Source: Candidatus Brocadiia bacterium (lineage in GTDB: Bacteria > Planctomycetota > PUPC01 > DSUN01). Taken from it: a stretch of DNA of 64,000 bases. Each line of letters opens with the position of its first letter. The first letter of the stretch is position 1. The position numbers and the translations under genes were made by a program. Shown here one piece after another: positions 15,876-32,763 of the stretch. A model generated the notes under the pieces. That model made no database searches. It was not told the DNA's origin and saw only the letters and a program-made list of their open reading frames with translations. Location: contig JBKHIY010000003.1 of NCBI GenBank assembly GCA_046538415.1, positions 4,143-68,142 of the forward strand, in the 5' to 3' direction.

Positions 15876-15960
15876 GCGAGAGTGGCGGAATTGGCAGACG
15901 CGCAGGACTTAGGATCCTGTGCCTTCGGGCGTGGGGGTTCGAGTCCCCCCTCTCGCACCA
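15876..15960 (+). tRNA. tRNA-Leu (anticodon TAG)
   Basis: GCGAGAGTGGCGGAATTGGCAGACGCG-CAGGA-CTTAGGA-TCCTG, long variable arm, GGGGGTTCGAGTCCCCC-CTCTCGC-ACCA. Confidence 0.97.
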
Positions 15961-16244: not shown

Positions 16245-17489
16245 ATGGACATCCGGCAGACGGCCTCGAGCGCCCGACAGTGCGCCGCTCGCCTGGCCAC
16301 CGCACCGACCGAGAGCAAGAACGCGGCCCTCCACGCCATGGCCGACCTGCTGGCCGAGCGGCGGGCCGAGGTGCTGGCGGCCAACGAGGAGGACATGGCG
16401 GCCGCGGCGGACGAGGGGCTCGGGGAGCATCTGGTCAGCCGCTTGCGCTTCGGCGAGGCCAAGATCGAGTCGCGCATCCGGTGCCTGGGCAAGATCGCGG
16501 CGCTGCCCGACCCCGTGGGCCAGACCTACGCCACCGACCGCCGTCCCAACGGGCTCGAAGTGGCCAGGATGCGCGTGCCCCTGGGGGTGATCCTCATGAT
16601 CTACGAGGCCCGGCCCCACGTGACCGTCAACGGCGGCGCCTTCTGCCTCAAGGCGGGCAACGCCGCCATCCTGCGGGGCGGCTCGGAGGCCCGCCGGTGC
16701 AACGAGCTGCTCGGGCGGCTCTGGCAGGAGGCCCTTGCCCAGGCCGGCCTCCCGTCCCAGGCGGTCCAGGTGGTCAGCGGCTCCCACGAGGAGATCGGCC
16801 AGATGCTCTCGCTGGACGAGCATATCGACCTGGTGATCCCCCGGGGCGGCAAGAAGCTCATCCGGGCGGTGTGCGAGCAGTCGCGCATCCCCGTCATCAA
16901 GCACTACGCCGGCGTGTGCCACGTCTACCTCGACGAGGGCTCGGACCTGGAGCGCGGCCTCGCCGTCGCCCTGGACTCCAAGACCCTCATGCCCGAGGTC
17001 TGCAACGCCATGGAAACCCTCCTCGTCGCCAGGGCCCTGGAGGGGCACCTGCCGCGCATCGTCGAGGCCTTCCGCGATGCGGGGGTCGAGGTGCGCGGCG
17101 ACGAGCGGGTGCGCGCCGCGGTGGGCGACGTGAGCCCCGCCAGCGACGAGAACTGGACGAACGAGTACCTGGACATGGTGGTCTCCGTGGGCGTGGTGGA
17201 CGACGTGGGCGGGGCCATCGCCCACATCAACGCCAAGGGCTCGCACCACACCGACGCCATCGTCACGGACAGCGAGTCGCGGGCCCGCCGCTTCGTGCGC
17301 GAGGTGGACTCGGGGGTGGTACTGGTGAATGCCTCCACCATGTTCTGCGACGGCGAGTCGCTGGGCATGGGAGCCGAGATCGGGATTTCCACGGACAAGC
17401 TGCACGCCCGCGGCCCCATGGGCCTGTGCGAGCTGACCACCTACAAGTTCGTCATCCGCGGCGAAGGCCACGTGATGGGCTCGAGCTAG
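16245..17489 (+). CDS. proA: Gamma-glutamyl phosphate reductase
   Basis: RVPLGVILMIYEARP.VT, GNAAILRGGSEA, IPRGG, catalytic CNAMETLLV, GAEIGISTDKLHARGPMG. RBS GGAG before ATG 16245. Confidence 0.94.
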   Translation: MDIRQTASSARQCAARLATAPTESKNAALHAMADLLAERRAEVLAANEEDMAAAADEGLGEHLVSRLRFGEAKIESRIRCLGKIAALPDPVGQTYATDRRPNGLEVARMRVPLGVILMIYEARPHVTVNGGAFCLKAGNAAILRGGSEARRCNELLGRLWQEALAQAGLPSQAVQVVSGSHEEIGQMLSLDEHIDLVIPRGGKKLIRAVCEQSRIPVIKHYAGVCHVYLDEGSDLERGLAVALDSKTLMPEVCNAMETLLVARALEGHLPRIVEAFRDAGVEVRGDERVRAAVGDVSPASDENWTNEYLDMVVSVGVVDDVGGAIAHINAKGSHHTDAIVTDSESRARRFVREVDSGVVLVNASTMFCDGESLGMGAEIGISTDKLHARGPMGLCELTTYKFVIRGEGHVMGSS

Positions 17490-17544
17490 GCACGCCGCGC
17501 CGGCGGACCACGCGGGGCCTCCCGGCCCCTGGGAAAGGAGCTGT

Positions 17545-18906
17545 ATGGAGCGCATCGTCAGGCATTTCGTCGACGGCTTCGAGGACGCGACCGCCAGCCG
17601 CGGGGAAGCCAAGCGGCGGGTGGGCTCGGAACTGAAGTTCCCCATCGTCAACGCTCGCGGCGAAGCGGCACCCCGCGAGGCGGTGGCCGCACTGTGGGCC
17701 TTTCTGGAGGAACGCGGCTGGCAGCCGGTGGCCGACAAGCTCACCGGCAAGGTCGTGGGGGCCCGCAAGCGCGGCCCGCAGAACGACACCCTGGCCTCCT
17801 GCGAGACGGGCTACTGCAAGACCGAGTTCTCGCTCGCCCACGTGGCCAATCTCCACGAGCTCGACGACGTGGTGGGCGAGCTGCGAGAGAGCCTCCGCGA
17901 CTTCTCCGACCGGGAGGGCGTCTACTTCCTGGGCTACGGCATCCAGCCCGTCACCCCGCCCAGCAAGCGCCTGCTGATCAAGAAGGGGCGCACCGCCTTC
18001 TGGGGCAAGGTCTTCAAGTCCAATCGCAAGATCGACCCCAGCGACGGCGACGACGTCCACCTGTTCACCATCAATGCCTCCAGCCAGGTGCACATCGACG
18101 TGTGCGGGGACAACGCCATCGGCGCGGTCAACACCTTCAACGGCCTCACCGCGGCCCAGATCGCCCTCACCGCCGACTCCAGCGTGTGGCAGGACCGCGT
18201 GGACCCCGACTACAAGTGCGTGTGCGAGATGTTCTGGGACTGGTGGATGCCCCAGGGCAACCGGGTGGGCGTGCCCCCCCATCCGTTCCGGGACATGGAG
18301 CACTACGTGCACACCATCGCCCGCCTCCGCCCCATCTACGTTAAGCGGGACGGCAAGCCGGTGGGCGTGATGGGCTACAAGACCTTCGCCGAATACTACC
18401 AGGCCGGCGAGAAGGCCCTGGGCACCGACGCCCGGGGCAACACCGTGCCTCTGCGGCCCTGCGACGAGGACATCGACCAGCACGGGACCTTCTACTGGTA
18501 CAACGCCCGCATCTCCCGCTACTATACGCTGGAGAACCGGGTGAACGACCAGCAGCCGCCCGACGACCTGATGTGCGTGCCCGCTCTCACCCTGGGCCTC
18601 GCCGCCGCCCTCCCCGAGGCCCGCCAGGTCGTGGAGGACTACCCCTGGGAAGAGCTCCGCGCCGCGCGGGCGAAGGCCTGCGAGCAAGCCCTCGATGCCA
18701 CCGCCGGCGGGCTCGAAGTCCACGAGCTGGCCCGCCGCATGCTGGAAGTCGCCCAGGGCGGGCTCCAGCGGCGGCGGCTGGGCGAAGAGCGCTACCTGGC
18801 ACCCCTATGGCAGCGGCTGGAGGACCGCCGATGCCCCGCCGACGACGCCGCGGAGCAGTTCCGCGCCGGAGGAGCCGAGCAACTGGTCCGGGCCCGAAGG
18901 CTGTGA
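17545..18906 (+). CDS. Glutamate-cysteine ligase family 2 (GCS2/GshA/EgtA-like) protein, divergent
   Basis: Spaced motifs VGSELKF, SCETG...EFS, GYGIQP, SSQVHID, ALTADS, LENRVNDQQP and C-terminal E..YLAPL...CPAD match the carboxylate-amine ligase fold. Confidence 0.75.
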   Translation: MERIVRHFVDGFEDATASRGEAKRRVGSELKFPIVNARGEAAPREAVAALWAFLEERGWQPVADKLTGKVVGARKRGPQNDTLASCETGYCKTEFSLAHVANLHELDDVVGELRESLRDFSDREGVYFLGYGIQPVTPPSKRLLIKKGRTAFWGKVFKSNRKIDPSDGDDVHLFTINASSQVHIDVCGDNAIGAVNTFNGLTAAQIALTADSSVWQDRVDPDYKCVCEMFWDWWMPQGNRVGVPPHPFRDMEHYVHTIARLRPIYVKRDGKPVGVMGYKTFAEYYQAGEKALGTDARGNTVPLRPCDEDIDQHGTFYWYNARISRYYTLENRVNDQQPPDDLMCVPALTLGLAAALPEARQVVEDYPWEELRAARAKACEQALDATAGGLEVHELARRMLEVAQGGLQRRRLGEERYLAPLWQRLEDRRCPADDAAEQFRAGGAEQLVRARRL

Positions 18907-18931
18907 AGCCCCCTACCCGAAAGGAGCAAGC

Positions 18932-20401
18932 GTGAGCACCACGCAACCGTCCGAGAAGAAGGCCCGGCAGCTCGCCGGCTCCCCCTACAAGCCCCTCGCT
19001 GATGCCGACCTGCGGCGCATCGCCGAGGCCGCCTTCGAGGTGCTCGAGAAATCCGGGCTGGCCGTCTACACCCCGCGAGGCTTCCAGGCATTCAAGGACG
19101 CGGGCGCCGACGTGGACCCCGAGACGCGCACCGTCAGGCTCCCCCGCTCCCTGGTCGAGGACGCCGTCGACTCCAACCCCTCGTCCATCACCCTCTATGC
19201 CCGCGACGAGGTCCATCACGCGGTGCTGGAGGGCAACCGCGTGCACTACGGCACGGGGGGCACGGCCCTCTACGTGCTCGACCCCGACACCGGGGAGCGA
19301 CGTCCCTCGACCAACCAGGACGTGGCTCTGAACGCCCGCCTGGCCGACCGGCTGGACAACATCCACGTGTTCACCATCAACGTGTTCCCCAACGAGGTGA
19401 AGGACCGGGATGCCATCGACGCCAACCGCTTCTTCCACTCGCTGGACCACACGACGAAGCACGTGATGGGCGGGGTCTACTCGCTCGACGGCTGCCGCCA
19501 GGTGGTGGCCATGGCGGAGCGGGTGGCCGGGGGTGCGGAGGCCCTTCGCCAGCGGCCCTTCGTCTCCTTCATCACCCTGATCATCAGCCCCTTCAAGATC
19601 GACGAGCACTACGGGGAGATGACCTGCTTCTTCGCCGAGAAGGGCCTCCCCGTGGTGGTGCCCACGGAGCCCATCTGCGGCACCACCTCGCCGGTGACCC
19701 TGGCGGGCAACGTGCTCACCCACATCGCCGAGACCCTGGGCGGCATCGCCATGGTCCAGTGCGTGCGCAAGGGCGCCCCGGGCATCTGCGGCAGCGTGGG
19801 CTCCACGTGCGACCTGCGCACCATGGACCACCTGGGCGGCCCCGTGGAGCGGGGCCTGATCCACGCCGCCGTCTCCCAGCTCGCCCAGCACTTCGGCATC
19901 CCGCTCTACTCCACGGCGGGCACCTCCGACGCCAAGGAGGTGGACATCCAGGCCGCCTACGAGAGCGCCGCCATCAACCTCCTGGTCGCCATGTCCGGCG
20001 CCAACTACATCCACGACGCGGCCGGGCTCATGGAGGCCGACCTCACCGTCGCCTACGAAAAGCTGGTGATGGACGACGAAATCCTGGGCATGTGCGACCG
20101 CGTGCTCCGGGGCATCGAGGTCACCGACGAGTCCCTGGCCCTCGACCTCATCGTGGGCAAGGGGCCGGGCAAGGACTTCCTGGCCGAGGAGCACACCGTG
20201 CGTCACATGCGCGGGGAGTTCTTCCTACCCCGCCTGGCCAATCGCAAGAAGCGCGACCAGTGGCGCCAGGACGACTCCGCCCTCGCCCGGGCCAAGGCCT
20301 TCGTGGCCGAGACCCGGGCCGGCGACTACCCGAGCTGCCTCGACGCCGACGTGCGGCGCCAGATTCTCGAGCAGCTCCCCCACATCCAGGCCGAGGCGTG
20401 A
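18932..20401 (+). CDS. Trimethylamine methyltransferase (MttB) superfamily protein, non-pyrrolysine, copy 1
   Basis: YKPL...I.EAAFEVLEKSG, YGTGG, TTKHVMG, GTTSPVTLAG, SDAKEVDIQAAYE, HDAAGLME, DDEILGM. No in-frame TAG. GTG start with RBS AAGGAG. Confidence 0.9.
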   Translation: MSTTQPSEKKARQLAGSPYKPLADADLRRIAEAAFEVLEKSGLAVYTPRGFQAFKDAGADVDPETRTVRLPRSLVEDAVDSNPSSITLYARDEVHHAVLEGNRVHYGTGGTALYVLDPDTGERRPSTNQDVALNARLADRLDNIHVFTINVFPNEVKDRDAIDANRFFHSLDHTTKHVMGGVYSLDGCRQVVAMAERVAGGAEALRQRPFVSFITLIISPFKIDEHYGEMTCFFAEKGLPVVVPTEPICGTTSPVTLAGNVLTHIAETLGGIAMVQCVRKGAPGICGSVGSTCDLRTMDHLGGPVERGLIHAAVSQLAQHFGIPLYSTAGTSDAKEVDIQAAYESAAINLLVAMSGANYIHDAAGLMEADLTVAYEKLVMDDEILGMCDRVLRGIEVTDESLALDLIVGKGPGKDFLAEEHTVRHMRGEFFLPRLANRKKRDQWRQDDSALARAKAFVAETRAGDYPSCLDADVRRQILEQLPHIQAEA

Positions 20402-20406
20402 CGCCC

Positions 20407-21711
20407 ATGGGACTCGCAGCCGAAGAAGGCGGACGGCAGGCCGAAGGCCAGCTCCCCGCCAGCGAAGAGCTCCTCGATGGAGCCCAGCAGCCGCTCGACC
20501 TGCCGCCGGGGCTCCTCGACGAGCAGGTCGCCTTCCCCACCGTGTTCGTCGACACCGGCCGGCTGGCCCTACGCGAGGCCCGGCCGGCCGACTGCCAGCG
20601 GGTGAACGAAGCCCTGGCGGAGGCCTTCGACCGCGTGCACCCCGGCCCCGTGGCGGGCCAGGCCCTGCTCAAGGTGCACATCGGCGAGCCCCGCTGCGCC
20701 ACCCGCATGCGGCCCGAGCACGCCGTTGCTAGCGCCCGGTTCCTCCGCGACCGGGGGGCCTCCGGCGTGGTGGCGGGGGACACTACCGTGGCCTACACCG
20801 GCCCCCGGGGACACCGCCGCAACCCCGTCGGCGACGCCAGCACCTACCTGGCCCTGGCCCGCGAGCACGGCTGGGCGAAGGACGGGCCCGCGGGGGTGCC
20901 CTTCGTAGTGCTCGACCGCCCCTCGACGGCGCTGGCGGGGGCCTTCGAGTTCGGGCCGGCGGAGGAGCGGAGGTGGATTTCGGGGGTCGAGCGGTTCGGC
21001 GATTTCTACCTGGCGGGCGGGTTCGGGGCGGCGGACTTCGTGGTCAACCATGCCCACCTGACCCTCCACGGGCTGGCGGGCGTGGCGGGCTGCGTGAAGA
21101 GCCTGGCCATGGGCTGCACGTCGCTGCCGGGCAAGCTGCGCATGCACCAGTCGCTCTTCCCCCGCTTCGACGAGGACAAGTGTGTGCTCTGCGGGCAGTG
21201 CGTGGAGAGCTGTCCCGCCGAGGCGCTCCACCTGCCGGAGGGGGCCGCTCGCCCGGTGGTGGACAAGGACGCGTGCATCGGCTGCGGCGAGTGTGTGGCC
21301 GTGTGCGCCGTGCGCCGCGGCGCCGTGCGCCTGAGGGGCGAGACCATCACCAACTGGCAGCGGGGCATGGCCACCCTCGGTGAGCGGATGACCGACTACG
21401 CCCTGGGCCTGATGAACGGCACGTGGCGCTCGACCATCCACGTGCTCCATCTCTACGCCGTGACCCCCCTGTGCGACTGTCTGAACACGTCCCAGACCCC
21501 TATGGTGGGCCGCGACGTGGGCTTCCTGGTGGGCAAGAACCCCTTCGCCATCGACCTCCTGGGGGCCCGCAAGCTCATCGAGGTGCTCCAGGCCGAGGGC
21601 CAGGACGTGGAGGACCCGCAGCTCCACTCCGCACAGAAGGCCGCGGCCTACGCCGCCAGGGCCTACGCCGTGCTCCAGAACACCCCGATGGAGACCATAG
21701 ACGCTTCCTAA
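20407..21711 (+). CDS. DUF362 family protein with 2x[4Fe-4S] ferredoxin domain
   Basis: KVHIGE, DTTVAY.G.R, H.TLHGLAGVAGCVKSLAMGC....GK, CVLCGQCVESCP, CIGCGECVAVC, TPLCDC. Confidence 0.82.
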   Translation: MGLAAEEGGRQAEGQLPASEELLDGAQQPLDLPPGLLDEQVAFPTVFVDTGRLALREARPADCQRVNEALAEAFDRVHPGPVAGQALLKVHIGEPRCATRMRPEHAVASARFLRDRGASGVVAGDTTVAYTGPRGHRRNPVGDASTYLALAREHGWAKDGPAGVPFVVLDRPSTALAGAFEFGPAEERRWISGVERFGDFYLAGGFGAADFVVNHAHLTLHGLAGVAGCVKSLAMGCTSLPGKLRMHQSLFPRFDEDKCVLCGQCVESCPAEALHLPEGAARPVVDKDACIGCGECVAVCAVRRGAVRLRGETITNWQRGMATLGERMTDYALGLMNGTWRSTIHVLHLYAVTPLCDCLNTSQTPMVGRDVGFLVGKNPFAIDLLGARKLIEVLQAEGQDVEDPQLHSAQKAAAYAARAYAVLQNTPMETIDAS

Positions 21712-21768
21712 CCACGCGGCGGGCCGGGGGGAGGGCGGACGCCGCGAGCCACTGAGAAGGAGAAGTCG

Positions 21769-23250
21769 ATGTCCGAGAAGCAGCGAGAAGGCGTGGTGGT
21801 GACCCCTTACTGCCGACTGTCCGAGGCCCAGGTGGGGCTGGTGGACGGCGTCTCCCGCGACCTCCTCCAGGACCCCGGCTTCCTGTGCTACAACGCGCAG
21901 GCGGCCGAGGTGTTCCAGAAGGCGGGGGCCACGGTCGAGGAGGAGAGCGGCTGCGTGCGCGTCCGCCTCCCCGGGGCCGTGCTGGACAAGGCCCTGGAGA
22001 GCGCCCCCTCGAAGATCGTGCTGGGGGCCCGCGAGCCCGACAACCGGCTGATCCTCGACGCCGCCGAGCCCCGCGTGCGCTTCGGCAGCGGCTCCGAGAC
22101 CAACGTGTGGCTGGAGGTGGGCTTCGAGGGCGCCGTGCCCACGTTCACCCGCCGCGACGGCTCCATCCAGCGGCTGTGCGCCGCCGCCCACCTGTGCGAG
22201 AACCTGGAGAACCTCGACTTCTTCATCCGCTGCGTGAACATTCGAGACCCCGAGGTCAACGAGACGAACAAGGACGTCAATAAGTACCTGGCCAGCCTGA
22301 ACAACATCACCAAGCACGTGCAGGCGGGGCTCACCAGCCTGGAGGCCTTGGACGACGTGGTCCAGCTGGGCCACATCGTGGCCGGGGGCGCGGAGGCCTT
22401 CGAGAAGAACCCCGTGCTGTCGTTCATCGCCTGCGTGTTCAAGAGCCCCCTCCAGATGGTGGACGACACGGCGTCGAAGGTGATCGAGGTGGCCGAGCGC
22501 CGCCTGCCCTTGGTCATCTCCAGCTCCCCCATGGGCGGGGCCACGGCGCCCTTCGACGAGTTCGGCATGGTGGCCCAGATCAACGCCGAGCTCCTGGCCG
22601 GCGTGGCCCTCACCCAGCTCGTCCGCCCGGGCACGCCAGTCCTCTACGGCAGCGTGCCCGTGCGCACCCGGCTGGACAACCTGAACGACATGTACGGAGC
22701 CCCGGAGTTCAACCACTACAACCTGGACTGCACGCAGATGGCCCGCTACTACGGCCTGCCCTGCTACTCCACGGCGGGAGTGGGCGACAGCGAGGTGCCG
22801 GGCATCCAGGCCACCGTGGAGAAGCTCCTCACCTATCTGTCGGTGCCCACGGGCGGAGCCCAGTATATCCACTACGCCTTCGGCCTCCTCGAGCGCACCA
22901 ACATGTTCTGCCCCGAGCAGGCGGTGATGGACGACGCCCACATCGGGATGGTCAAGCACACCCTCAAGGACCCGCCCGTATCGGAAGACCGGCGCGACGA
23001 AATCCTGGCCATGGTGCGCGAGGTGATGCAGACCGACCACAGGACCTACATGTACCACCTGCCCCTGCCCTCGCGGGAGCACGTCTACGCCTGCTACCCC
23101 CTGGAGGACGACGAGGGCGACGCCCTGATGGCCGCCCACAAGCGCTACAAGGAAATCATGGACCTGCCCCGCAAGCCCCTGCCCAAGGACGTGCAGGAGG
23201 AAATCCAGGCCAAGGTGCCCAACGTCCTGCCTCAGACCCTCACCGCATAG
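21769..23250 (+). CDS. MttB superfamily methyltransferase, non-pyrrolysine, divergent copy 2
   Basis: RFGSGS, ITKHVQ, SPMGGATAP, NAELLAGVALTQLVRPGTPVLYG, YSTAG, HYAFGLLE, EQAVMDD. RBS AAGGAG. Confidence 0.87.
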   Translation: MSEKQREGVVVTPYCRLSEAQVGLVDGVSRDLLQDPGFLCYNAQAAEVFQKAGATVEEESGCVRVRLPGAVLDKALESAPSKIVLGAREPDNRLILDAAEPRVRFGSGSETNVWLEVGFEGAVPTFTRRDGSIQRLCAAAHLCENLENLDFFIRCVNIRDPEVNETNKDVNKYLASLNNITKHVQAGLTSLEALDDVVQLGHIVAGGAEAFEKNPVLSFIACVFKSPLQMVDDTASKVIEVAERRLPLVISSSPMGGATAPFDEFGMVAQINAELLAGVALTQLVRPGTPVLYGSVPVRTRLDNLNDMYGAPEFNHYNLDCTQMARYYGLPCYSTAGVGDSEVPGIQATVEKLLTYLSVPTGGAQYIHYAFGLLERTNMFCPEQAVMDDAHIGMVKHTLKDPPVSEDRRDEILAMVREVMQTDHRTYMYHLPLPSREHVYACYPLEDDEGDALMAAHKRYKEIMDLPRKPLPKDVQEEIQAKVPNVLPQTLTA

Positions 23251-23263
23251 AAGGAGGTCACAG

Positions 23264-24559
23264 ATGGTCGAGCTGAAGCCTCAAGAGCAGATGGAAGCCT
23301 ACACCGAAGCTGTCAAGAGCGGCCTCTACGCCAAGCGGTCGGGCCTGGTGGGCAAGTACGACAACGTGCGCAAGTACTGGGAGGACGAGATCACCCGCGA
23401 GTTCCTCCGCCCCCACCTGCGCAAGCTCATCGAGCGCAGCCGCGAGCGCATGCGACGGGTGCGTATCCTCGACCTGGGCTGTGGCAGCGCCGACGGCTTC
23501 GAGCTCCTGGCCGGCATCCGAAACCGCGACGCCGACCTCCAGACCGACGAGGTCGAGCTCCTCACCCCCGAAGTCCTCGGCCTCTACAAGGGAGTGGACC
23601 TCAATCAGGACCTCCTCGACCAGGCGCGGGGCATCTACGGCGGCAATCCCAAGATGACCTTCGGACAGGCCGACTTCACCCAGGAGCTGCCCCTGGACGA
23701 CGACGAGAAGCCCTACGACCTCTACTTCACCTCCTTCGGCACCTTCTCGCACCACAACCAGGACGAGACCGCGGTGCGCCTCCTGGCCGACATCGCACGC
23801 AAGGTCGAACACTACTGCATCATCATGTGCGATTGGCTGGGACGCTACTCCTACGAGTGGCAGACCCTGTGGACCAACGACCTGTCCGAAAACCGCAATA
23901 TGGACTACGTCGTCTCCTACATCTACGAGAAGGAGGAGCGGGAGCGGCGGCGCGACGAACTCCAGCATCTCACCCTCCGCCTGATGAGCCGCCAGGAAGC
24001 CGACTCCATCGTCGAACGCGCCTCCAAGGAGGCCGGCGTGCCCATCAAGCCCCTGGTCTACTTCGACCGCTCCACCTTCACCGGGCGGCACATGGACACC
24101 GGCGACTATAACCCCGGCGCCCAGCCCATCCGCCGGGCCGTCAACTCCCTCCACGAGGCCAACGTGCGGACCGACCTCGATACCCTCCTCGTCGACTACG
24201 TGCCCAAGGCCGGCTTCGACTTCATCAACGACTACTTCGAGCATCTCCAGATGTGCTGGAACACCCTGGTGGGCCACAGCGACGAGCTGCTCCACCTGTT
24301 CCACGACGGGCGGGGCGAGTTCCTCGAGGAGCCCGAGCCGGTGCCCGCCAGCTACCCCGCGGCCCTCCGCGACATGATGCATCGGATGCGCAAGGTGGTC
24401 GAGGGGATCGGGTGGCTGCGCGTGGGCCTGCCCCGGGAGAACATCATCGAGCCCCAGCTCGGCTACGCCCTTCGCGAGCTGGTCATGCGTCTCCAGCAGG
24501 GCCAGGGCTGCGCCCACGGCCTGGTGGGCATCTTCGAGATCGACAAGACCGCCAGCTAG
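23264..24559 (+). CDS. Class I SAM-dependent methyltransferase, substrate unknown
   Basis: Motif I ILDLGCGSADG, YKGVDLNQDLL, QADF, YDLYFTSFGTFSH. RBS AAGGAGG. Confidence 0.82.
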   Translation: MVELKPQEQMEAYTEAVKSGLYAKRSGLVGKYDNVRKYWEDEITREFLRPHLRKLIERSRERMRRVRILDLGCGSADGFELLAGIRNRDADLQTDEVELLTPEVLGLYKGVDLNQDLLDQARGIYGGNPKMTFGQADFTQELPLDDDEKPYDLYFTSFGTFSHHNQDETAVRLLADIARKVEHYCIIMCDWLGRYSYEWQTLWTNDLSENRNMDYVVSYIYEKEERERRRDELQHLTLRLMSRQEADSIVERASKEAGVPIKPLVYFDRSTFTGRHMDTGDYNPGAQPIRRAVNSLHEANVRTDLDTLLVDYVPKAGFDFINDYFEHLQMCWNTLVGHSDELLHLFHDGRGEFLEEPEPVPASYPAALRDMMHRMRKVVEGIGWLRVGLPRENIIEPQLGYALRELVMRLQQGQGCAHGLVGIFEIDKTAS

Positions 24560-24574
24560 CCCCGGAGGCGCGGC

Positions 24575-25612
24575 GTGATCACCTTCGAGAAAGTCTCCAA
24601 GACCTACGCCGGCGGCGTGCAAGCCGTCCGCGAGCTGAGCCTGGAAGTCCAGGAGGGCGAAACCGTCGTCCTCCTGGGCACCAGCGGCTCGGGCAAGACC
24701 ACCACGCTGAAGATGGTCAATCGCCTCATCGAGCCCTCGGGGGGGCGGATTCTCATCGATCAGACCGACATCATGGACCAGAACCCCATCGAGCTGCGGC
24801 GCAGCATCGGCTACGCCATCCAGCACATCGGCCTGTTCCCCCACATGACCATCGGCGAGAACATCGCGGTGGTGCCCAAGCTGGTGGGCTGGGCCGGCGA
24901 GGACATCGCCGAGCGGGTGGACAAGCTGCTGGCCATGGTGGGCCTGGAGCCCGAGCAGTTCCGCGACCGCTACCCCAACCAGCTCAGCGGGGGGCAGCGC
25001 CAGCGCGTGGGGGTAGCCCGCTCCCTGGCCGCCGACCCGCCCATCGTGCTCATGGACGAGCCCTTCGGGGCCCTCGACCCCATCACCCGGGAGCAGCTCC
25101 AGGGCGAGTTCATCGAGCTGGAGTCGCAGATCCAGAAGACCATTCTGTTCGTGACCCACGACGTGTTCGAAGCGGTGCGGATGGGCGACCGCATCGCGCT
25201 GCTCGACGAGGGGCGCCTCCAGCAGCTCGCCACCCCGGCCGACCTGGTGGAAAGCCCGGCCAACGAGTTCGTCGACCACTTCCTCGGCCAGCACCGCTTC
25301 CAGCTCTCCCTGCTCACCCGCACCATCGAGTCGGTCGTGAGCCGCAAAGAGGGCAAGGAGGAAGGGAAGGCAGTGGCGGAGCTTCCGGAGCCGCGCCTCA
25401 GCGCCCTGAGCCCGCTGATCGACGGGCTCGATGCGTTCAAGCGCTCGGGCGCCGAGCGCCTGCCCGTCTTCAAGGGCAAGCAGCGCATCGGCCAGCTCAC
25501 CAAGCAGCGCCTGGTCGACGAAATCGCGGCCGTCTTCGGCGAGACGGCGGAGGAGGGGGAGCGCCCAGCCCCCGCTCGCCAGGCCCGGGAGGAAGGGGAG
25601 GGGACGCCATGA
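24575..25612 (+). CDS. Osmoprotectant (glycine betaine/carnitine/choline) ABC transporter ATPase, OpuCA/OsmV-like
   Basis: Walker A GTSGSGKTT, GYAIQHIGLFPHMT, LSGGQRQRVG, LMDEPFGALDPITR. Degenerate CBS-like tail. Confidence 0.93.
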   Translation: MITFEKVSKTYAGGVQAVRELSLEVQEGETVVLLGTSGSGKTTTLKMVNRLIEPSGGRILIDQTDIMDQNPIELRRSIGYAIQHIGLFPHMTIGENIAVVPKLVGWAGEDIAERVDKLLAMVGLEPEQFRDRYPNQLSGGQRQRVGVARSLAADPPIVLMDEPFGALDPITREQLQGEFIELESQIQKTILFVTHDVFEAVRMGDRIALLDEGRLQQLATPADLVESPANEFVDHFLGQHRFQLSLLTRTIESVVSRKEGKEEGKAVAELPEPRLSALSPLIDGLDAFKRSGAERLPVFKGKQRIGQLTKQRLVDEIAAVFGETAEEGERPAPARQAREEGEGTP

Positions 25613-27210
25613 AACCCAAGCCGCGCCACATCGCGATTGCCCTCGTCCTGGCTGCCCTGGTGGGTGCCGGCGTGTGGTACGGCCGCCGCCCGGTGGCCGA
25701 CGTACGGCCCGCCTTCAGCTCGGAGTTCAGCGATGGGCCGCGCAGCTGGCGGGGCTTGTGCCAGCGCTACGGCTTCCGGTTCCACACCCAGCCCCTCACG
25801 CTGGAGGCGGAGGAGCGCTTCAGACGCCTTGCCGAGGGGGAGGTGGACGTGATCGACGGGGCCTCGACGGACGGTCGGATCGCGGCCCTGGACCTGGTGT
25901 CGCTGAGCGACGACCGGGGCTACTTCGCGGGCTCCAAGCCCCTGCCCGTGGTGCGCCCCGCCCTGCTCGACCAGCAGCCGTGCGTGAAGAGGGTGCTGGA
26001 CGAGCTGACCTACGCGCTCACCGCGCAGGCGTTCCAGCGGCTCTCCTACCAGGTGCGGTCCGAGGGCCGGTCCCCCGAGCAGGCCGTGGGCGCGTGGCTC
26101 GACGACGCGCTGTCGCTCCGCCAGGAAGGCAAGGAGGAAGCTGCGGGACGCATCGTCGTGGGCCAGACCACGGCCCCCGACCAGGACCTCCTGGCCGAGG
26201 CGGTGGCAGAGGCCCTGGCCCGCGGCACGGCGCTGGAGGTGGAGCACAAGCGCGGCCTGGCCGACGCCCAGGCGTGTGTGGACGCCCTGGGGGCCGGGCG
26301 GGTGGACGTGGCCGTGCTGTGCACGGGGCGCGTGCTCCGCAACGTCCTGGGCCGCGAGACGGGCCAGGGGCTGGGCGAGGACGTCTACGACGTGGCCGCC
26401 GCGCTCGACGAGCAGTACGGCCTGCGGTGCCTGGAGCCCTTCGAAGTGACCCTCACGCGCACGCTGATCATGCGGGAGAAGCAGGCGAAGCGCCGGGGCA
26501 TCGAGTCGGTCTCCGACCTGGCGGAGCGCCAGCGCAGCCGCTTCGACGTGTTCTTCTCGAAGCACGGCGCGGAGATGCTCAGCAAGACCTACGAGCACCT
26601 GTATCTGACGTTTTTCGCCATGGTGCTGGCCACGGGCATCGCGCTGCCGCTGGGCATCTACCTGAGCAAGACTCGTTACGAGCGGCTGGCCTTCGCGATG
26701 ATGAGCGCCGCGGGCATGATCCAGACGGTGCCCAGCCTGGCGCTCATCGCTCTCATCGTGCTGGTTTTCGCCCTGGTGGCCCTGCCCACCATCGGCACTG
26801 CCCCGGCCGTCACGGCCCTGGTGCTCTACGCCCTGCTGCCCATCCTGCGCAACACCTACACCAGCATTCGCCAGGTGGACCCCGCCATCGTGGAGGTGGC
26901 CCGGGGGATGGGGATGCGCCCCTCGCAGGTGCTCTTCCAGGTGGAACTGCCGCTGTCCCTGCCGGTGATCATGGCCGGCATCCGCATCTCCACCGTGTGG
27001 ACCATCGGCATCGCCACCCTGGTGGGGCTCATCGGCGCCGGCGGCCTGGGCGACCTGATCATCCGGGGGCTGCGGAACTTCAAGCTCGACTACGTCTTCG
27101 CGGGCACCATTCCCGCGGCCGCACTCGCCCTGGTGCTCGACACCCTGCTGGGATGGACCGAGAAGTGGCTCACCCCAGAGGGCCTTCGCTCCCAACGACA
27201 GACCCCATGA
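25609..27210 (+). CDS. Osmoprotectant ABC permease fused to an N-terminal degenerate substrate-binding domain
   Basis: ATGA overlap with the ATPase stop. N-terminal TM anchor, OpuAC/OpuCC-like domain (EVDVIDG.STDGRI), then permease QTVPSLAL, LYALLPILRNTY, EVARGMGM, IGAGGLG. Confidence 0.87.
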   Translation: MKPKPRHIAIALVLAALVGAGVWYGRRPVADVRPAFSSEFSDGPRSWRGLCQRYGFRFHTQPLTLEAEERFRRLAEGEVDVIDGASTDGRIAALDLVSLSDDRGYFAGSKPLPVVRPALLDQQPCVKRVLDELTYALTAQAFQRLSYQVRSEGRSPEQAVGAWLDDALSLRQEGKEEAAGRIVVGQTTAPDQDLLAEAVAEALARGTALEVEHKRGLADAQACVDALGAGRVDVAVLCTGRVLRNVLGRETGQGLGEDVYDVAAALDEQYGLRCLEPFEVTLTRTLIMREKQAKRRGIESVSDLAERQRSRFDVFFSKHGAEMLSKTYEHLYLTFFAMVLATGIALPLGIYLSKTRYERLAFAMMSAAGMIQTVPSLALIALIVLVFALVALPTIGTAPAVTALVLYALLPILRNTYTSIRQVDPAIVEVARGMGMRPSQVLFQVELPLSLPVIMAGIRISTVWTIGIATLVGLIGAGGLGDLIIRGLRNFKLDYVFAGTIPAAALALVLDTLLGWTEKWLTPEGLRSQRQTP

Positions 27211-27235
27211 CGCTACGCACAAGGAGGAGTCCATC

Positions 27236-28300
27236 ATGACAAACCGCCAGCGACTACTGGTATTCATCGGCGTGGTCGTGGTCGTCGGGATCCTCCTGGT
27301 GCTCGGCCCCCGGTTGATACCCCGGCGCCAGGAGCGCGGCCAGCGCGAGCAGGAGGCCCGCGGCGAGCAGCGGGCCGGAGCCGAGAAGGGCGACCAGGAG
27401 GACGGCGGCGAGACGAAGCCGGCCAAGATATCCCAAGGGCCCCTCAAGGCCGCCTTCGACGCCGAGTTCCTCACCCGCCCCGACGGCTACCAGGGGATGG
27501 TCGAGCACTACGGCTTCCGCTTCCCCGAGGAGCCGAGGCAGATGGACCCCGGCCTGATGTACAAGGCCTGCGCCGACGGCGACGTGGACGTGATCGACGC
27601 CTTCGCCACCGACGGGCGGATCCCCGCCTACGAGCTCCAGATCCTGGAGGACGACAAGGGCTTCTTCCCCCCCTACTACGCGGCCCCGCTGGTCCGGGCC
27701 TCCGTCATCGAGCAGCATTCCAAGGCCGAGAGCGTGCTCAACCGCCTCGCCGGCCGCATGTCCAACCGCCAGATGCGCAGGCTCAACTACCGCGTCGACG
27801 AGAAGGGGCGCGAGCCCCGCGACGTGGCCCGCGAGTTCCTCATCAGCCAGGGCCTCCTCGAGCGGGAGGCCCAGCCCGGCGGGGGCACCGAGGGCCCGGT
27901 GACCGTGGGCAGCAAGCATTTCACCGAGCAGGAAATCCTCGGCGAGATGATGGCCCTCATGCTCGAATACCACACCGACCTTCAGGTGAACCGCCGGCTC
28001 AACCTGGGCGGGACCATGATCTGCTTCAACGCCCTGAAGGCCGGCGACCTCGGCCTCTACGCCGAGTACACCGGCACGGGGCTGGTGAACATCCTCAAGC
28101 GCGATGTCATCGCAGACCCCGACAAAGCCTACGAGAAGGTCAAGACCGAATTCAAGGAGAGGTACGACCTGGTGTGGCTCAAGCCCTTCGGCTTCAACAA
28201 CACCTACACCCTCACCATGCGCCGCGGGCAAGCCGAGGCGCTGGGCATCGAGACCATCTCCGACCTCGCTGAGTACATTAACCGCCGACGCAGCGACTAG
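27236..28300 (+). CDS. Osmoprotectant ABC substrate-binding protein (OpuCC/OsmX-like), circularly permuted
   Basis: N-terminal TM anchor. EFLTRPDG, MDPGLMY, DAFATDGRI and DDKGFFPPY come before VGSKHFTEQ, NLGGT, EYTGT, FGFNNTY and TISDL. Confidence 0.9.
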   Translation: MTNRQRLLVFIGVVVVVGILLVLGPRLIPRRQERGQREQEARGEQRAGAEKGDQEDGGETKPAKISQGPLKAAFDAEFLTRPDGYQGMVEHYGFRFPEEPRQMDPGLMYKACADGDVDVIDAFATDGRIPAYELQILEDDKGFFPPYYAAPLVRASVIEQHSKAESVLNRLAGRMSNRQMRRLNYRVDEKGREPRDVAREFLISQGLLEREAQPGGGTEGPVTVGSKHFTEQEILGEMMALMLEYHTDLQVNRRLNLGGTMICFNALKAGDLGLYAEYTGTGLVNILKRDVIADPDKAYEKVKTEFKERYDLVWLKPFGFNNTYTLTMRRGQAEALGIETISDLAEYINRRRSD

Positions 28301-28388
28301 CGCCGCGGGGCGGCGACCGCCGGGCGTCGCTACCGGGCGTCTCGGCGAGGGCCTCTCGCTGCGGCCGGTAGGTGAGGACCCGCGTGCC

Positions 28389-29000
28389 ATGCGCGAGCTG
28401 ATCGGCGCCGCCATTCCGTTTCTCGCCATCCTCAACCCCTTCGCCCTGTGCCTCTACCTGGTGGGGAAGATGGACGAGCTGGACACGCGCAGCTTCCGCA
28501 CGGTCCTGCTCAAGGCCTCGGTGCTGTCCCTCGCCGTTTTCGCCCTGTTTGCTGCCGCGGGCGACAGGTTGCTGGTCGAGGTGCTGGGCATCCACACGGA
28601 GGCGATGCGCATCTTCGGGGGCGTGATCTTCTTCGCCGTGGGCTACGGCTACGCCACGCGCGGATTCCAGGAGACGGTGCTCCTGCGGGGCAGCCTGGAC
28701 GATCTGCCCTCGGAGATCGCCGTGCCCTTCATGATCGGGGCGGGCACCATCACCCAGTCCGTCCTCCTGGGCAAGAGCTACTCCCTGGGCCTCGCCCTGG
28801 CCGTGATCGTCCTGAGCATGGCCCTCACCGTGGCCGCCGTGGTGTGCTTCAAAGTCATCCGCGACCGGGTGAAGGCCGCCCACGAGGCCGTCTTCGACCG
28901 GTATGTGAATATCCTCTCGCGGCTCAAGGGCCTGTTGATCGGGGCGATTTCCACGGATATGGTCGTCACCAGCCTGCGGGAGATGTGGCTGGGGAGCTGA
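28389..29000 (+). CDS. MarC family integral membrane protein
   Basis: FLAILNPF, LGI...AMRIFGGVIFF, AVPFMIGAGTIT. Six hydrophobic segments. Confidence 0.85.
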   Translation: MRELIGAAIPFLAILNPFALCLYLVGKMDELDTRSFRTVLLKASVLSLAVFALFAAAGDRLLVEVLGIHTEAMRIFGGVIFFAVGYGYATRGFQETVLLRGSLDDLPSEIAVPFMIGAGTITQSVLLGKSYSLGLALAVIVLSMALTVAAVVCFKVIRDRVKAAHEAVFDRYVNILSRLKGLLIGAISTDMVVTSLREMWLGS

Positions 29001-29041
29001 GGGCCGCTCCGCCGCGCGTCCAGCACAGAAGGAGAGAGCCC

Positions 29042-30361
29042 ATGAGACGCCGATGCCAGCCCTGGCTGTTTCGTGCCCTGTTCGCCGTGGTGGTTCTGCT
29101 CGGAGCTTCCTGCGGCCCGTGGGCGGGGGCCGCGGCCCTCGCCGGCGAGCCGCCGCCCGCGGAGGCCGAGGCCGCCAGCCCGGAGGAGGGCGGGGACGTC
29201 GCCGAGCTCGACATCGCCGAGCATCTTCCGCAGTGGGCGCAGGGGGAGTTCGTGGGCATCGCCGCGTGGCAATACATCGCCTGCTTCCTGCTCATCCTGC
29301 TCGGTCTGGTGGCCAGGAAGGTCTCGGACCACGTGGTGGAGACGCGGCTGGTGCCGCTGCTCCGCCGCACGCGCTACGAGGCCCTACCTCTGCTGGCCGA
29401 GGCGGCGAGCCGCCCTGCGGGCTACCTGCTGCTGCTGCTCGGCCTGTTCGCGGCGCTGGCGGTGCTGGGGCTGCCCCGCGAGCCCGACGTTCGAGGCTTC
29501 GCCTTCGGGGCCATCAAGATCCTGGTGGCCATCGACGTCATTTGGTTCCTCTTCCGGGCGGTGAACGTGGGCGAGCGGTACCTGGAGAAGCTGGCGGGGC
29601 GGAGCGAATCGAAGCTCGACGACCAGCTGGTGCCCGTGATCCGCAAGGCGCTCAAGGCCACCATCGCGGTCATCGGCTTCGTGTGGGTGGTCCAGCTCCT
29701 GGGCTACCGCGTCTCCAGCCTCCTGGCCGCCCTGGGCATCGGCGGCCTGGCCGTGGCCCTGGCTCTCCAGGACACGCTGGGCAACTTCTTCGGCTCGGTG
29801 TTCATCTTCCTCGACCGCCCCTTCGCGGTGGGCGACTGGATCAAGGTCGAGGGCGTGGAGGGGATCGTGGAGGACATCGGCTTCCGCTCCACCCGCATCC
29901 GCACCTGGCCGGCCACCCTGGTCTCCATCCCCAACAAGACCGTCGCTTCGTCCACGGTGGACAACTGGTCGCGGATGCCCAAGCGCCGCGTGATGCAGAC
30001 GGTGGGCGTGACCTACGAGACCACGGCCGACCAGATGGAGGCCGCGGTGGATGGGATTCGCCAGGTCGTGGAGGGCGACGAGGGGGTGGACAAGGAGTTC
30101 ATCGTGGTCCGCTTCACCGACTTCGGCGACTCCAGCCTCAACATCCTGGTCTACTACTTCACCACCGCCATCCCCTTCGCCGACCATACCGCCACCAAGC
30201 AGCGCATCAACCTCGCCATCATGCGGTTCCTGCGGGGCATGGGCCTCTCCATCGCCTTCCCCACCCAGACCCTCTACTTCGAGGGTCCGGTGGCGGAGAG
30301 CGTGGCCGAGGGAATCGGCCAACTGGGGCAGCAGCGGCCGGCCGACCGCGAGGAGTCGTGA
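29042..30361 (+). CDS. Small-conductance mechanosensitive channel, MscS family (YnaI-like)
   Basis: LLAALGIGGLAVALALQDTLGNFFG, DRPFAVGDWI, VEDIGFRSTRIRT, IPN, IAFPTQTL. Confidence 0.93.
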   Translation: MRRRCQPWLFRALFAVVVLLGASCGPWAGAAALAGEPPPAEAEAASPEEGGDVAELDIAEHLPQWAQGEFVGIAAWQYIACFLLILLGLVARKVSDHVVETRLVPLLRRTRYEALPLLAEAASRPAGYLLLLLGLFAALAVLGLPREPDVRGFAFGAIKILVAIDVIWFLFRAVNVGERYLEKLAGRSESKLDDQLVPVIRKALKATIAVIGFVWVVQLLGYRVSSLLAALGIGGLAVALALQDTLGNFFGSVFIFLDRPFAVGDWIKVEGVEGIVEDIGFRSTRIRTWPATLVSIPNKTVASSTVDNWSRMPKRRVMQTVGVTYETTADQMEAAVDGIRQVVEGDEGVDKEFIVVRFTDFGDSSLNILVYYFTTAIPFADHTATKQRINLAIMRFLRGMGLSIAFPTQTLYFEGPVAESVAEGIGQLGQQRPADREES

Positions 30362-31944: not shown

Positions 31945-32763
31945 CTATTCCTCGGGCATGTAGATGACGCGCAGGCCGGCGTCGCCGTCCTCCCGCTCCG
32001 CCGCATGCGCCCTGCGGTTGGCGGAGCGGGCGCTATCGGCCTTGTAGTACCAGGAGCCCCCGCGCAGGACTCGGCCCGTGCCCTCCGAGGGTCCCTGAGG
32101 GTCGATCTTCTTGGCGCCGGCGTAGGAGAAGGCGTAGTAGTCCTCGCACAACTCCCAGACGTTCCCGCTCATGTCGTAGAGGCCCCAGTCGTTGGGCTCG
32201 AGCTGGCCCACCTCGTTGGTGCCCTCGTCGCGCTTGTAGACCCAGGCGCAGGCGGGGTCGAACTCGTCGCCCCAGTAGAAGCGGGTGGTGGTGCCCGCCC
32301 GACAGGCGTACTCCCATTCGGCCTCCGTGGGGAGGCGATAGGAGCCGCTGGGGTCCATCTCGGAGAGCTTGGCGCAGAAGGCCTTGGCGTCGTTCCACGA
32401 GACCATCTCGACGGGGCGGTTGTCGCCCTCGAAGCGGGAGGGGTTGCGGCCCACCACCTTGCCGTACTGGGCCTGGGTGACCTCGTGGACGCCCATGTAG
32501 AAGGGCTTGGAGATGGTCACCTCGTGGGCCGGCGCCTCGTCGGCCTCCCCCTCGTCGGTGCCCATGGTGAAGGTGCCGGCTTCGATGCGGCGGAACTTCA
32601 TGCCGATGCTGTTGGTCACCACTTCTCCCTCGTGCTCGGTCTCCACGGCTTCGACGGTCTCGACCTTCTTGCCCGCCGCCTCGTCGTCGCCGCCGCAGGA
32701 GACCAGAAGCGATGCCGCCAGCACGGCCAAGAGCCCGCTCGCCCATCGGATGCGATGTTGCAC
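31945..32763 (-). CDS. Formylglycine-generating-enzyme (SUMF1/FGE-sulfatase) domain lipoprotein
   Basis: Lipobox LVSC. FTMG, EVTQAQY, RLPTEAEWEYACRAG, PNDWGLYDMSGNVWE, RGGSW. Catalytic Cys pair absent. Confidence 0.88.
   Translation of the reverse strand: MQHRIRWASGLLAVLAASLLVSCGGDDEAAGKKVETVEAVETEHEGEVVTNSIGMKFRRIEAGTFTMGTDEGEADEAPAHEVTISKPFYMGVHEVTQAQYGKVVGRNPSRFEGDNRPVEMVSWNDAKAFCAKLSEMDPSGSYRLPTEAEWEYACRAGTTTRFYWGDEFDPACAWVYKRDEGTNEVGQLEPNDWGLYDMSGNVWELCEDYYAFSYAGAKKIDPQGPSEGTGRVLRGGSWYYKADSARSANRRAHAAEREDGDAGLRVIYMPEE

Follow-up and report, generated by a model that had tools for sequence, protein, structure and literature searches.

The described systems closest to the one reported here are built around corrinoid methyltransferases of the MttB family. 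MtgB, which works with MtgC, MtgA, and RamA, and the Eubacterium limosum enzymes MtpB, MtcB, MtyB, and MthB are TIM-barrel enzymes of family PF06253 without pyrrolysine, and so are the two enzymes discussed below. They need three partners, namely a small corrinoid protein, a methyltransferase that binds pterin, and a RamA-type activase; each of the three is also encoded in the genomes that carry our cluster. To our knowledge, no substrate has been assigned to thousands of non-pyrrolysine MttB homologues. We analyzed a 64,000-nucleotide stretch of DNA (the window) from contig JBKHIY010000003.1 of Candidatus Brocadiia bacterium (phylum Planctomycetota; assembly GCA_046538415.1), a metagenome-assembled genome (MAG) that is 85% complete. 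The window contains a cluster of eleven genes in which two MttB homologues, MttB1 and MttB2, are encoded together with a methyltransferase (MTase) dependent on S-adenosylmethionine (SAM), a ProA paralogue, a protein resembling glutamate–cysteine ligase (GCL-like), and an importer of the Opu type. Our tentative reading is that the cluster makes or converts an N-methylated nitrogen solute.

The cluster MttBs differ from the MtgB and E. limosum enzymes in having tyrosine in place of Arg312 and no glycine betaine motif; the two paralogues are, moreover, paired with a SAM MTase and with either an AsnB or a ProA/GCL-like module. Glycine/sarcosine and sarcosine/dimethylglycine N-methyltransferases (GSMT and SDMT) are class I SAM enzymes of betaine synthesis in halophiles and are often encoded near betaine transporters. 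The cluster MTase has no detectable sequence relation to GSMT/SDMT, EgtD, or PMT, and its match to the glycine N-methyltransferase fold has a TM-score of 0.23; unlike GSMT/SDMT, it is 431 amino acids (aa) long, carries a helical extension of about 200 aa, and belongs to a separate compact family. Under salt stress, N-acetylglutaminylglutamine amide (NAGGN) is made by asnO-ngg and, in Bacilli, proline by proH-proJ-proA; both routes lead from acidic amino acids to solutes without net charge. Like these, the cluster has a dedicated AsnB-type amidotransferase or a second copy of the ProA route; unlike them, it has no linked homologues of Ngg, ProJ, and ProH, the kinase role would fall to the GCL-fold protein, and its modules are tied to methyl-transfer enzymes. 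The importer resembles OpuB, OpuC, OpuF, and EgtU in its OpuAC-family binding domains, its fusion of a binding domain with a permease, and its ProV-like ATPase, whereas the swapped lobes of the free binding protein relative to the solved structures and the presence of two binding domains per system set it apart.

The MtgBCDE system of Ruegeria pomeroyi (PMC12478193) is modular: one corrinoid protein links an MttB-family demethylase to the methylation of both tetrahydrofolate (THF) and homocysteine, which makes it a precedent for the methyl relay proposed below. The genomes carrying our cluster likewise have stand-alone homocysteine methyltransferase modules near corrinoid proteins. MtgBCDE is, however, aerobic, specific for glycine betaine, and catabolic, and it includes no dedicated SAM MTase, AsnB, ProA/GCL-like module, or second MttB in fixed order. 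The parts of our cluster are of known kinds; their combination, the MttB subfamilies without the arginine, and the MTase family were not described in the full text of the literature searched. This agrees with a preliminary description of the window, made from its sequence, which knew of no characterised pathway with these parts.

The conservation of the cluster was analyzed in a scan of one genome per species, in which relatives of the MTase were found in 182 genomes. The 80 best-scoring loci from these 182 genomes, all from MAGs, were studied; their flanks end at 10 kb, and co-occurrence was counted only in loci with enough flanking sequence (testable loci). The gene of MttB2 was located immediately 5' of the MTase gene in 71 of 71 testable loci, MttB1 was found in 50 of 53, and Opu ABC genes in 45 of 59. 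The common core consists of MttB1, MttB2, and the SAM MTase, usually joined by an OpuB/C-type importer and one ATP-dependent carboxylate-modifying module. Since this core order recurs in 80 loci of other genomes, the cluster is more than a chance arrangement, and the co-occurrence on which the preliminary description had staked its proposal was observed. Other members are optional: MarC was found in 15 of 59 testable loci and MscS in 3 of 59. The channel had been cited earlier in favor of a biosynthetic model; with so rare a linkage it no longer serves as support. MarR regulators were present in 14 loci.

The 80 loci span at least nine phyla, with labels including Planctomycetota, Latescibacterota, Spirochaetota, Kiritimatiellota, Chloroflexota (Anaerolineales), Hydrogenedentota, Fibrobacterota, Lentisphaerota, Verrucomicrobiota, and Gemmatimonadota. 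The MTase has over 1,500 homologues; the best 120 are 71–78% identical, and the few with named sources are labelled Planctomycetota, Phycisphaerae, Armatimonadia, Poribacteria, or Spirochaetota. Within the phylum of the window, the family was present in 20 of 401 sampled genomes and in 9 of 243 high-quality ones. This patchy spread and the MTase tree, which cuts across taxonomy, indicate horizontal transfer. Sequencing runs that contain the locus are labelled as microbial mat and hypersaline lake metagenomes; one of them may be the source sample, and the runs with at least half of the sampled words all come from one study. No RNA run was among those listed as containing the locus; run X6 has a share of only 0.05, which is not evidence. 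Taken together, the data point to a conserved module that has spread horizontally among anaerobic bacteria of saline and anoxic habitats, and the link to N-methyl or quaternary-amine chemistry and to saline habitats drawn in the preliminary description holds.

Both cluster MttBs matched PF06253 over the full length (cut-off 25 bits), as did a third homologue of the window, MttB3 (399 bits). The reading frames of MttB1 and MttB2 are uninterrupted, and the pyrrolysine position (X334 of 7xcl) is occupied by valine in MttB2 (direct alignment) and by threonine in MttB1 (via MtgB), with serine or threonine across the MttB1 orthologues. The possibility of pyrrolysine enzymes was rejected because no in-frame TAG is present in the MttB genes. 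In the divergent locus L187, an Rfam PYLIS_3 match of 67 bits (positions 1545–1644, minus strand) lies inside an MttB1-like gene, also without in-frame TAG; it reflects coding-sequence homology only, since methionine occupies the pyrrolysine position.

MttB1, MttB2, and MttB3 were aligned residue by residue to MtgB (9yce/2qne; the numbering of the paper and that of the chain are offset by 2). In MtgB, glycine betaine is bound by Y97, R312, H348, and F356 (PMC13080624). According to that paper, R312 is shared by every characterised member of the family (MtgB, MtcB, MtpB, MthB, and MtyB) and pairs with the acidic group of the substrate, the substrates of these members all being acidic quaternary amines. 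The motif is absent from the window's enzymes: the corresponding residues are G/Y/D/D in MttB1, S/Y/Y/T in MttB2, and G/Y/H/L in MttB3. Tyrosine replaces Arg312 in 60 of 60 orthologues of MttB1 and 72 of 72 of MttB2 as well as in MttB3. The pocket residues G110, Y326, H361, D362, and D370 of MttB1 and Y333, H368, Y369, and T377 of MttB2 are invariant in the same 60 and 72 sequences, respectively.

Because of this tyrosine, acidic betaines are probably not the substrates of MttB1 and MttB2. Glycine betaine and proline betaine were rejected on the pocket residues, and carnitine is argued against too. The substrate in the catabolic model of the preliminary description, proline betaine imported and demethylated twice, is disfavored, because both MttBs lack the equivalent of Arg312 that the characterised enzymes for acidic betaines all retain (PMC13080624). 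To judge from the pockets, candidate substrates are methylammonium compounds without an acidic group or, should the enzymes work in reverse, amines in the protonated state.

MttB3 (37445–38923, minus strand) is likewise non-pyrrolysine and has tyrosine in place of Arg312, although its counterpart of His348 is still a histidine. Its gene stands in a row with those for a Zn-dependent alcohol dehydrogenase (38977–40221) and an aldehyde:ferredoxin oxidoreductase (40329–42170), all on the minus strand. This row may represent a pathway for an alcohol- or aldehyde-type (choline-like) methylammonium compound. In one locus (L024), the pair of MttB3 and alcohol dehydrogenase adjoins the cluster.

The composition of the accessory module was analyzed by clustering the open reading frames (ORFs) of the 80 loci all-against-all, which exposed a neighbor missed by the window-derived queries: an AsnB-type amidotransferase of about 505 aa with GATase_7 and Asn_synthase domains, which is an alternative to the ProA/GCL-like pair. 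ProA/GCL-like genes were present in 27 of the 80 loci (type P) and AsnB in 36 (type A), while no locus contained both. With the analysis limited to the 31 loci having at least 7 kb on each side, 18 were of type P, 12 of type A, and one of neither. DUF362 was restricted to type P, where it is optional (13 of 80 loci; 10 of the 18 well-flanked type-P loci). The exclusivity extends to whole genomes: the GCL-like protein had no match at E ≤ 1e-10 in 15 of 15 type-A genomes, and the AsnB-family matches in 16 type-P genomes were only distant and partial (28–37% identity), with none at all in three of them. Types P and A interleave on the MTase tree (a quick IQ-TREE search), on which well-supported branches force at least six switches. 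Types P and A do not differ in their MttB pocket residues, which indicates that the core handles the same molecule(s) whichever module is present.

The N-termini of the AsnB-like proteins (n = 43) begin with MCG or VCG, with the catalytic cysteine kept, in 16 cases, with MAG or MAA in 13, and with MSG in 8; six were unclear. In all three two-copy loci with both N-termini readable, one Cys form is paired with one Ala form. Genes for a B12-binding radical SAM protein and/or a radical SAM-SPASM protein adjoin type-A clusters in loci L030, L037, L045, L051, L066, L075, L077, and L081, and in Spirochaetota an unannotated ORF of 376 aa also recurs near type-A clusters. A cluster for a ribosomally synthesized and post-translationally modified peptide (RiPP) or another natural product, with AsnB and the two kinds of radical SAM protein as neighbors, was considered and set aside, because such neighbors occur in only 4–8 loci.

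ProA and the GCL-like protein were paired in 26 loci. The cluster ProA (ProA2) scores above the equivalog cut-offs (Table 1). Contig C208 of the window's genome carries a second proA (516 bits), which shares 50% identity with the cluster copy and has PhoH and HDIG genes, not proB, as neighbors; proC was present, and no proB above cut-off was found in this MAG. In five of five other type-P genomes, a single proB was found along with two proA, the weaker-scoring of which (425–447 bits) resembles the cluster copy, and proB never adjoins the cluster proA. ProA2 is thus a dedicated second paralogue and not the single-copy housekeeping partner of ProB; a housekeeping role of the cluster gene was rejected on the second copy present here and in all five of those genomes.

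The sequence of the GCL-like protein is far below the family cut-offs: 45 bits vs. 463 for TIGR01436 and 13 vs. 21 for PF04107 (GCS2). Its structural model (pLDDT 84.7) matched the plant glutamate–cysteine ligase 2gwc over the whole length in Foldseek (E 2.8e-18, TM 0.79–0.82, 20% identity). The label GCS2 of the preliminary description is thus not borne out by the sequence scores, although the fold matches. The protein has 425 homologues and is single-copy in the window's genome; its constant partner is the ProA paralogue, not glutathione synthetase. Glutamate–cysteine ligases form an enzyme-bound gamma-glutamyl phosphate, which belongs to the substrate class of ProA, and by analogy with this established chemistry the GCL-like protein may form the same intermediate. 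Replacement of a missing ProB was rejected as a role of the GCL-like protein, since the five other type-P genomes contain proB as well as a housekeeping proA. Nor are the two proteins a general part of the system, for AsnB replaces them in 36 of 80 loci.

The MTase of the cluster (METHYLTRANSFERASE) carries a class I SAM motif with invariant D70, G72, C73, and G74. The class I fold was recognized by Foldseek with probability 1.00 to many SAM methyltransferases, the best TM-score normalised to the query being no higher than 0.36. A profile of the family gave no methyltransferase match among PDB sequences, Pfam Methyltransf_33 was not matched, and neither the PDB profile nor the Foldseek searches found a close relative of known function in sequence or structure. 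The family is compact, with 320 representative clusters among 1.84 billion proteins.

Gene fusions connect the MTase with other members of the system. P0276, P0280, and the fragment P0357 are AsnB-MTase fusions, with the N-terminal half 47% identical to an AsnB from one of the clusters, which indicates that the two enzymes share a pathway. P0306 is a fusion of a universal stress protein (Usp) with the MTase, and in P0292, a single fragment, the C-terminal end of a corrinoid protein runs directly into the MTase. A metagenome scan with P0276 was swamped by the generic asparagine-synthetase motif, and none of the 80 resulting loci matched the MTase half or held cluster genes. In loci L184 and L186, the order MarR-MTase-AsnB-Opu occurs without MttB or corrinoid protein, and L190 has the same order without a MarR match. 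These MttB-free modules suggest that MTase, AsnB, and importer are self-standing, the MttB/corrinoid unit being an addition to them. Distant MTases in L183 and L184 are encoded beside NhaA and a Na+/H+ exchanger (Na_H_Exchanger).

As for the corrinoid machinery, a corrinoid protein of 211 aa is encoded on the window's contig (C162:76261–76896), about 8 kb beyond the window end, and a second one of 213 aa on contig C161 beside a URO-D/MtaA-like gene. The genome also encodes two RamA-type activases, two homologues of pterin-binding methyltransferases, and one homologue of the MetH activation domain. To judge from these predicted proteins, the parts of a three-component corrinoid methyltransferase are available in the window's genome. 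Small corrinoid proteins were found in 30 of 30 sampled cluster genomes, and RamA in 31 of 31 vs. 1 of 14 controls. In 78 of the 80 orthologous loci the cluster has no corrinoid protein, and a pterin methyltransferase or RamA was found in none of the 80. In the other two loci (L038 and L041), a corrinoid protein directly follows MttB1 and is 56% identical to the C162 copy vs. 39–42% for the C161 copy. Divergent loci are more complete. L187 has the order MarR, Opu, AsnB, pterin methyltransferase, MttB2, corrinoid protein, MTase, corrinoid protein, RamA, an unknown ORF, and MttB1; L188 has proA, GCL-like, DUF362, a MetH-activation-like gene, MttB1, pterin methyltransferase, MttB2, corrinoid protein, MTase, and Opu; L185 is similar, and in all three the gene for a corrinoid protein separates those of MttB2 and the MTase. 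The corrinoid protein that seemed to be missing is thereby accounted for: its gene lies in another part of the genome and, in relatives, inside the cluster.

A homocysteine methyltransferase domain was present in 27 of 30 cluster genomes, in six of them on the same contig as a corrinoid protein and at most about 6 kb from it. Frames of about 290–360 aa for homocysteine S-methyltransferases lie near small corrinoid proteins on G023:C179, G018:C34, G007:C92, G021:C126, G010:C237, and G002:C11; these neighborhoods have the layout of a split methionine synthase and resemble MtgBCDE. The C161 corrinoid gene belongs to a separate methyl-transfer unit (G000:C161:2197–5354, L010), in which the 213-aa protein is accompanied by the URO-D/MtaA-like methyltransferase and a Zn-dependent alcohol dehydrogenase.

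The importer genes follow the order ATPase, fusion of substrate-binding protein and permease, and second substrate-binding protein. The free binding protein scored about 260 bits against choline/acetylcholine sensor scaffolds and 180–195 bits against OpuCC, OpuBC, and EgtUC. Its lobes are circularly permuted: residues 211–347 align to the N-terminal part of these proteins and residues 73–208 to the C-terminal part. Its overall similarity is to binders of choline, carnitine, betaine, and ergothioneine.

The reading that we prefer, with a probability of roughly 40%, is that the cluster makes or converts an N-methylated nitrogen solute, the MttB/corrinoid unit tying this solute to imported non-acidic quaternary amines and to the C1/SAM pool. 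For the MTase and the accessory module a biosynthetic role is proposed, given the irreversible reaction of AsnB and its fusion with the MTase. In this role, the MTase would methylate an amino-acid-derived skeleton with SAM. Both modules activate a carboxylate with ATP and are thus proposed to act on the distal carboxylate of the same methylated skeleton: AsnB would neutralise it as an amide, whereas the GCL-like protein and ProA2 would remove its charge by way of an acyl-phosphate and then an aldehyde. The MttB pair and the corrinoid protein would strip methyl groups from imported non-acidic (choline-like) quaternary amines, so that all enzymes would work in their known direction, and the methyl groups would pass via the corrinoid protein of a split methionine synthase, or via methyl-THF, to methionine and SAM. 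Opu would import the methyl donor or recapture the product. The salt context agrees with this reading: the Usp-MTase fusion, the NhaA and Na_H_Exchanger neighbors, MscS in the window, and the runs from hypersaline lake and mat. Of the two models in the preliminary description, the biosynthetic one fits better than the catabolic one in its direction, since the alternative accessory enzyme is the irreversible AsnB, also fused to the MTase; proline, its skeleton, is unlikely to be obligatory, because AsnB replaces the ProA/GCL-like pair while the MTase and the MttB pockets are unchanged.

Several observations weigh against solute synthesis. Among the genes that recur in the loci, none encodes an aminotransferase, a decarboxylase, or another enzyme that would define the skeleton; in particular, no recurrent aminotransferase or decarboxylase was found in the gaps inside the clusters. 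An adjacent importer with a MarR regulator is the usual layout of catabolic operons too, and among well-flanked type-A loci Opu is present in only 5 of 12. ProA2 still scores as a canonical ProA and may simply make glutamate semialdehyde. The MTases of the MttB-free modules are only 31–33% identical to that of the window and may act differently. All carriers are MAGs, in which binning errors and gaps are possible. We failed to find the homocysteine methyltransferase domain (PF02574) and MetE (PF01717) in the window's MAG, and the relay to SAM is therefore untraceable in this genome. The missing proB, PF02574, and PF01717 genes may belong to the 15% that was not assembled; alternatively, this bacterium makes proline and methionine in an unusual way. 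Finally, the characterised MttB-family enzymes are all catabolic demethylases (PMC13080624; PMC12478193).

This last point leads to pure catabolism, a reading that is doubtful in our view, in which a quaternary amine imported by Opu would be demethylated by MttB1 and MttB2 onto the corrinoid protein and the methyl group would pass to THF, to be used as a source of energy or carbon. The MTase and the accessory module would process the carbon skeleton or be merely co-regulated. The known direction of the family (PMC13080624; PMC12478193) is consistent with this reading, as are the full demethylation sets (MttB, corrinoid protein, pterin methyltransferase, and RamA) in L187, L185, and L188, the activase in 31 of 31 genomes, the importer adjacent in 45 of 59 loci, the MarR genes in 14, and the third MttB with alcohol dehydrogenase and aldehyde oxidoreductase in the window. 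It leaves the invariant SAM-consuming MTase without a role, however, and does not account for AsnB, whose chemistry is irreversible and biosynthetic and which is fused to the MTase. Modules of MTase, AsnB, and Opu exist without any MttB, pterin methyltransferase and RamA are missing from all 80 orthologous loci, and several well-flanked loci have no importer.

A hybrid trimethylation, which generalises the biosynthetic model of the preliminary description and to which we give little credence, would run the MttBs in reverse. MttB1 and MttB2 would act as methyl-corrinoid-dependent N-methylases for the first and second methylations, with methyl-THF as the source via the pterin methyltransferase, and the SAM MTase would perform the uphill quaternisation. 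In its fuller form, just as improbable, a glutamate-type skeleton would receive methyl groups from methyl-THF or from imported choline-like donors, and its distal carboxylate would be neutralised to give a glutamine-betaine-like amide (with AsnB) or an aldehyde or alcohol betaine (with the GCL-like protein and ProA2). Two MttBs and one MTase add up to three methyl groups. The MttB1 pocket, with two aspartates and without the aromatic pair and the arginine of MtgB, would suit a protonated primary or secondary amine, and the order MttB2-corrinoid protein-MTase as well as the one corrinoid-MTase fusion fragment fit a shared substrate. Transfer from methyl-THF to corrinoid is an established physiological direction (MetH, acetogen MeTr). 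MtgD is reported to be a bidirectional corrinoid methyltransferase (PMC12478193). However, the adjacent importer is left unexplained, the full-text literature search found no reverse MttB reaction, and we know of no MttB-family enzyme that acts as an N-methylase. Moreover, characterised demethylases lack the aromatic pair as well (PMC13080624).

It is also improbable that the genes form a co-regulated osmostress island of biochemically independent modules, namely Opu import, MscS release, a neutral amino-acid solute route, and a separate quaternary-amine unit. The solute route, free of feedback, would lead through the GCL-like protein and ProA2 to proline or through AsnB to an amide. Accessory genes do come and go (MarC, 15 of 59; MscS, 3 of 59; DUF362, 13 of 80), ProA2 is a true ProA by its score, the genome contains proC, and Bacillus has dedicated osmostress proline operons. 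Nevertheless, the AsnB-MTase fusions and the genome-level exclusivity of the modules indicate one pathway, and the order of the trio is invariant.

A role of the MTase as a SAM-dependent reductive-methylation reactivase of the corrinoid protein, similar to the AdoMet domain of MetH and with the DUF362 ferredoxin as electron donor, would suit P0292, which has the domain order of MetH Cob-AdoMet, and the corrinoid proteins adjoining the MTase in L185, L187, and L188, but is very improbable given that RamA is already present in 31 of 31 genomes, that L185 and L188 carry a separate MetH-activation-domain homologue and L187 a RamA, that MTase and AsnB form modules without a corrinoid protein, that the AsnB fusions are left unexplained, and that P0292 is a single fragment.

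The genes of the cluster are listed in Table 1. The window has a G+C content of about 70%, and the real frames were therefore chosen by third-position G+C; starts were refined by inspection of start codons, and genes were named from Pfam and NCBIfam scans. The eleven genes occupy positions 16245–30361 on the plus strand, with successive gaps of 55, 25, −4, 57, 13, 15, −4, 25, 88, and 41 nt; the same genes and the same range of gaps (−4 to 88 nt) given in the preliminary description were obtained on recomputation.

Table 1. Features of the gene cluster and the tRNA gene preceding it (positions in the window).
Feature	Position	Strand	Evidence and remarks
tRNA-Leu(TAG)	15876–15960	+	ARAGORN and Rfam; just upstream of proA; genomic context, may mark an old insertion point
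ProA paralogue (gamma-glutamyl-phosphate reductase type), ProA2	16245–17489	+	NF001221 532 bits (cut-off 289), TIGR00407 434 bits (cut-off 317)
GCL-like ATP-dependent carboxylate-amine ligase, 453 aa	17545–18906	+	Plant-type glutamate–cysteine ligase fold, distant
MttB1, non-pyrrolysine MttB-family corrinoid methyltransferase, acidic pocket	18932–20401	+	PF06253 320 bits; 218 bits vs. MtgB 2qne/9yce
DUF362 protein with inserted 2x[4Fe-4S] ferredoxin domain	20398–21711	+	PF04015 70 bits and Fer4 families
MttB2, divergent non-pyrrolysine MttB-family methyltransferase	21769–23250	+	PF06253 195 bits
Class I SAM-dependent MTase, 431 aa	23264–24559	+	Methyltransf_25 28 bits (cut-off 27)
Betaine/choline-type ABC transporter ATPase	24575–25612	+	TIGR01186 proV 320 bits, marginally below the subfamily cut-off of 326.6; PF00005
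OpuAC-type binding domain fused to permease	25609–27210	+	PF04069 (116 bits) and PF00528 (85 bits), both in frame with ORF 24253–27210; ATG at 25609
Second, free substrate-binding protein, OpuBC/OpuCC/EgtUC type	27236–28300	+	PF04069 220 bits
MarC-family membrane protein	28389–29000	+	PF01914 58 bits
MscS-type mechanosensitive channel	29042–30361	+	Three MS_channel domains: PF21088, PF00924, PF21082

A recent island inserted at the tRNA-Leu gene was rejected, as no att-like repeat was found and the tetranucleotide composition is normal. A scan for promoters and terminators gave counts at chance level, with no terminator-like site on the plus strand within the cluster. Sigma-54 promoter matches in the window numbered 17 vs. 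22 expected by chance, with none upstream of proA. No riboswitch was detected at the gathering threshold in the window or in eight loci.

A twelfth co-oriented gene, encoding a sulfatase (30372–31910, plus strand), starts 10 nt past MscS and was found near the cluster in only 3 of 80 loci; its product scored 99 bits against choline-sulfatase TIGR03417 (cut-off 433). The gene of a formylglycine-generating enzyme (31945–32763, minus strand) is convergent to it. Further downstream of the cluster, a phosphotransacetylase-like gene (32815–33933) and two genes resembling ATP-citrate lyase or succinyl-CoA ligase (34078–35343 and 35333–37423) were found.

Regarding the protein families, the loss in the MttB1 and MttB2 subfamilies of an arginine common to every characterised member implies a new, non-acidic class of methylammonium substrates; these subfamilies are the first known to us with such a loss. 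The uncharacterised MTase family is strongly conserved (71–78% identity across phyla), and its gene fusions connect it with three kinds of protein: amidotransferase, stress protein, and corrinoid protein. The hybrid trimethylation, if true, would be the first biosynthetic role in the MttB superfamily and would explain the constant presence of two MttBs and one MTase. Hypersaline mats and sediments are sources of methylamine-driven methane. If solute synthesis is true, the cluster would reveal how Planctomycetota, Spirochaetota, Kiritimatiellota, Latescibacterota, and other uncultured anaerobes tolerate salt; the turnover of osmolytes, the demand for vitamin B12, and methyl flow in these hypersaline mats and sediments would then be connected.

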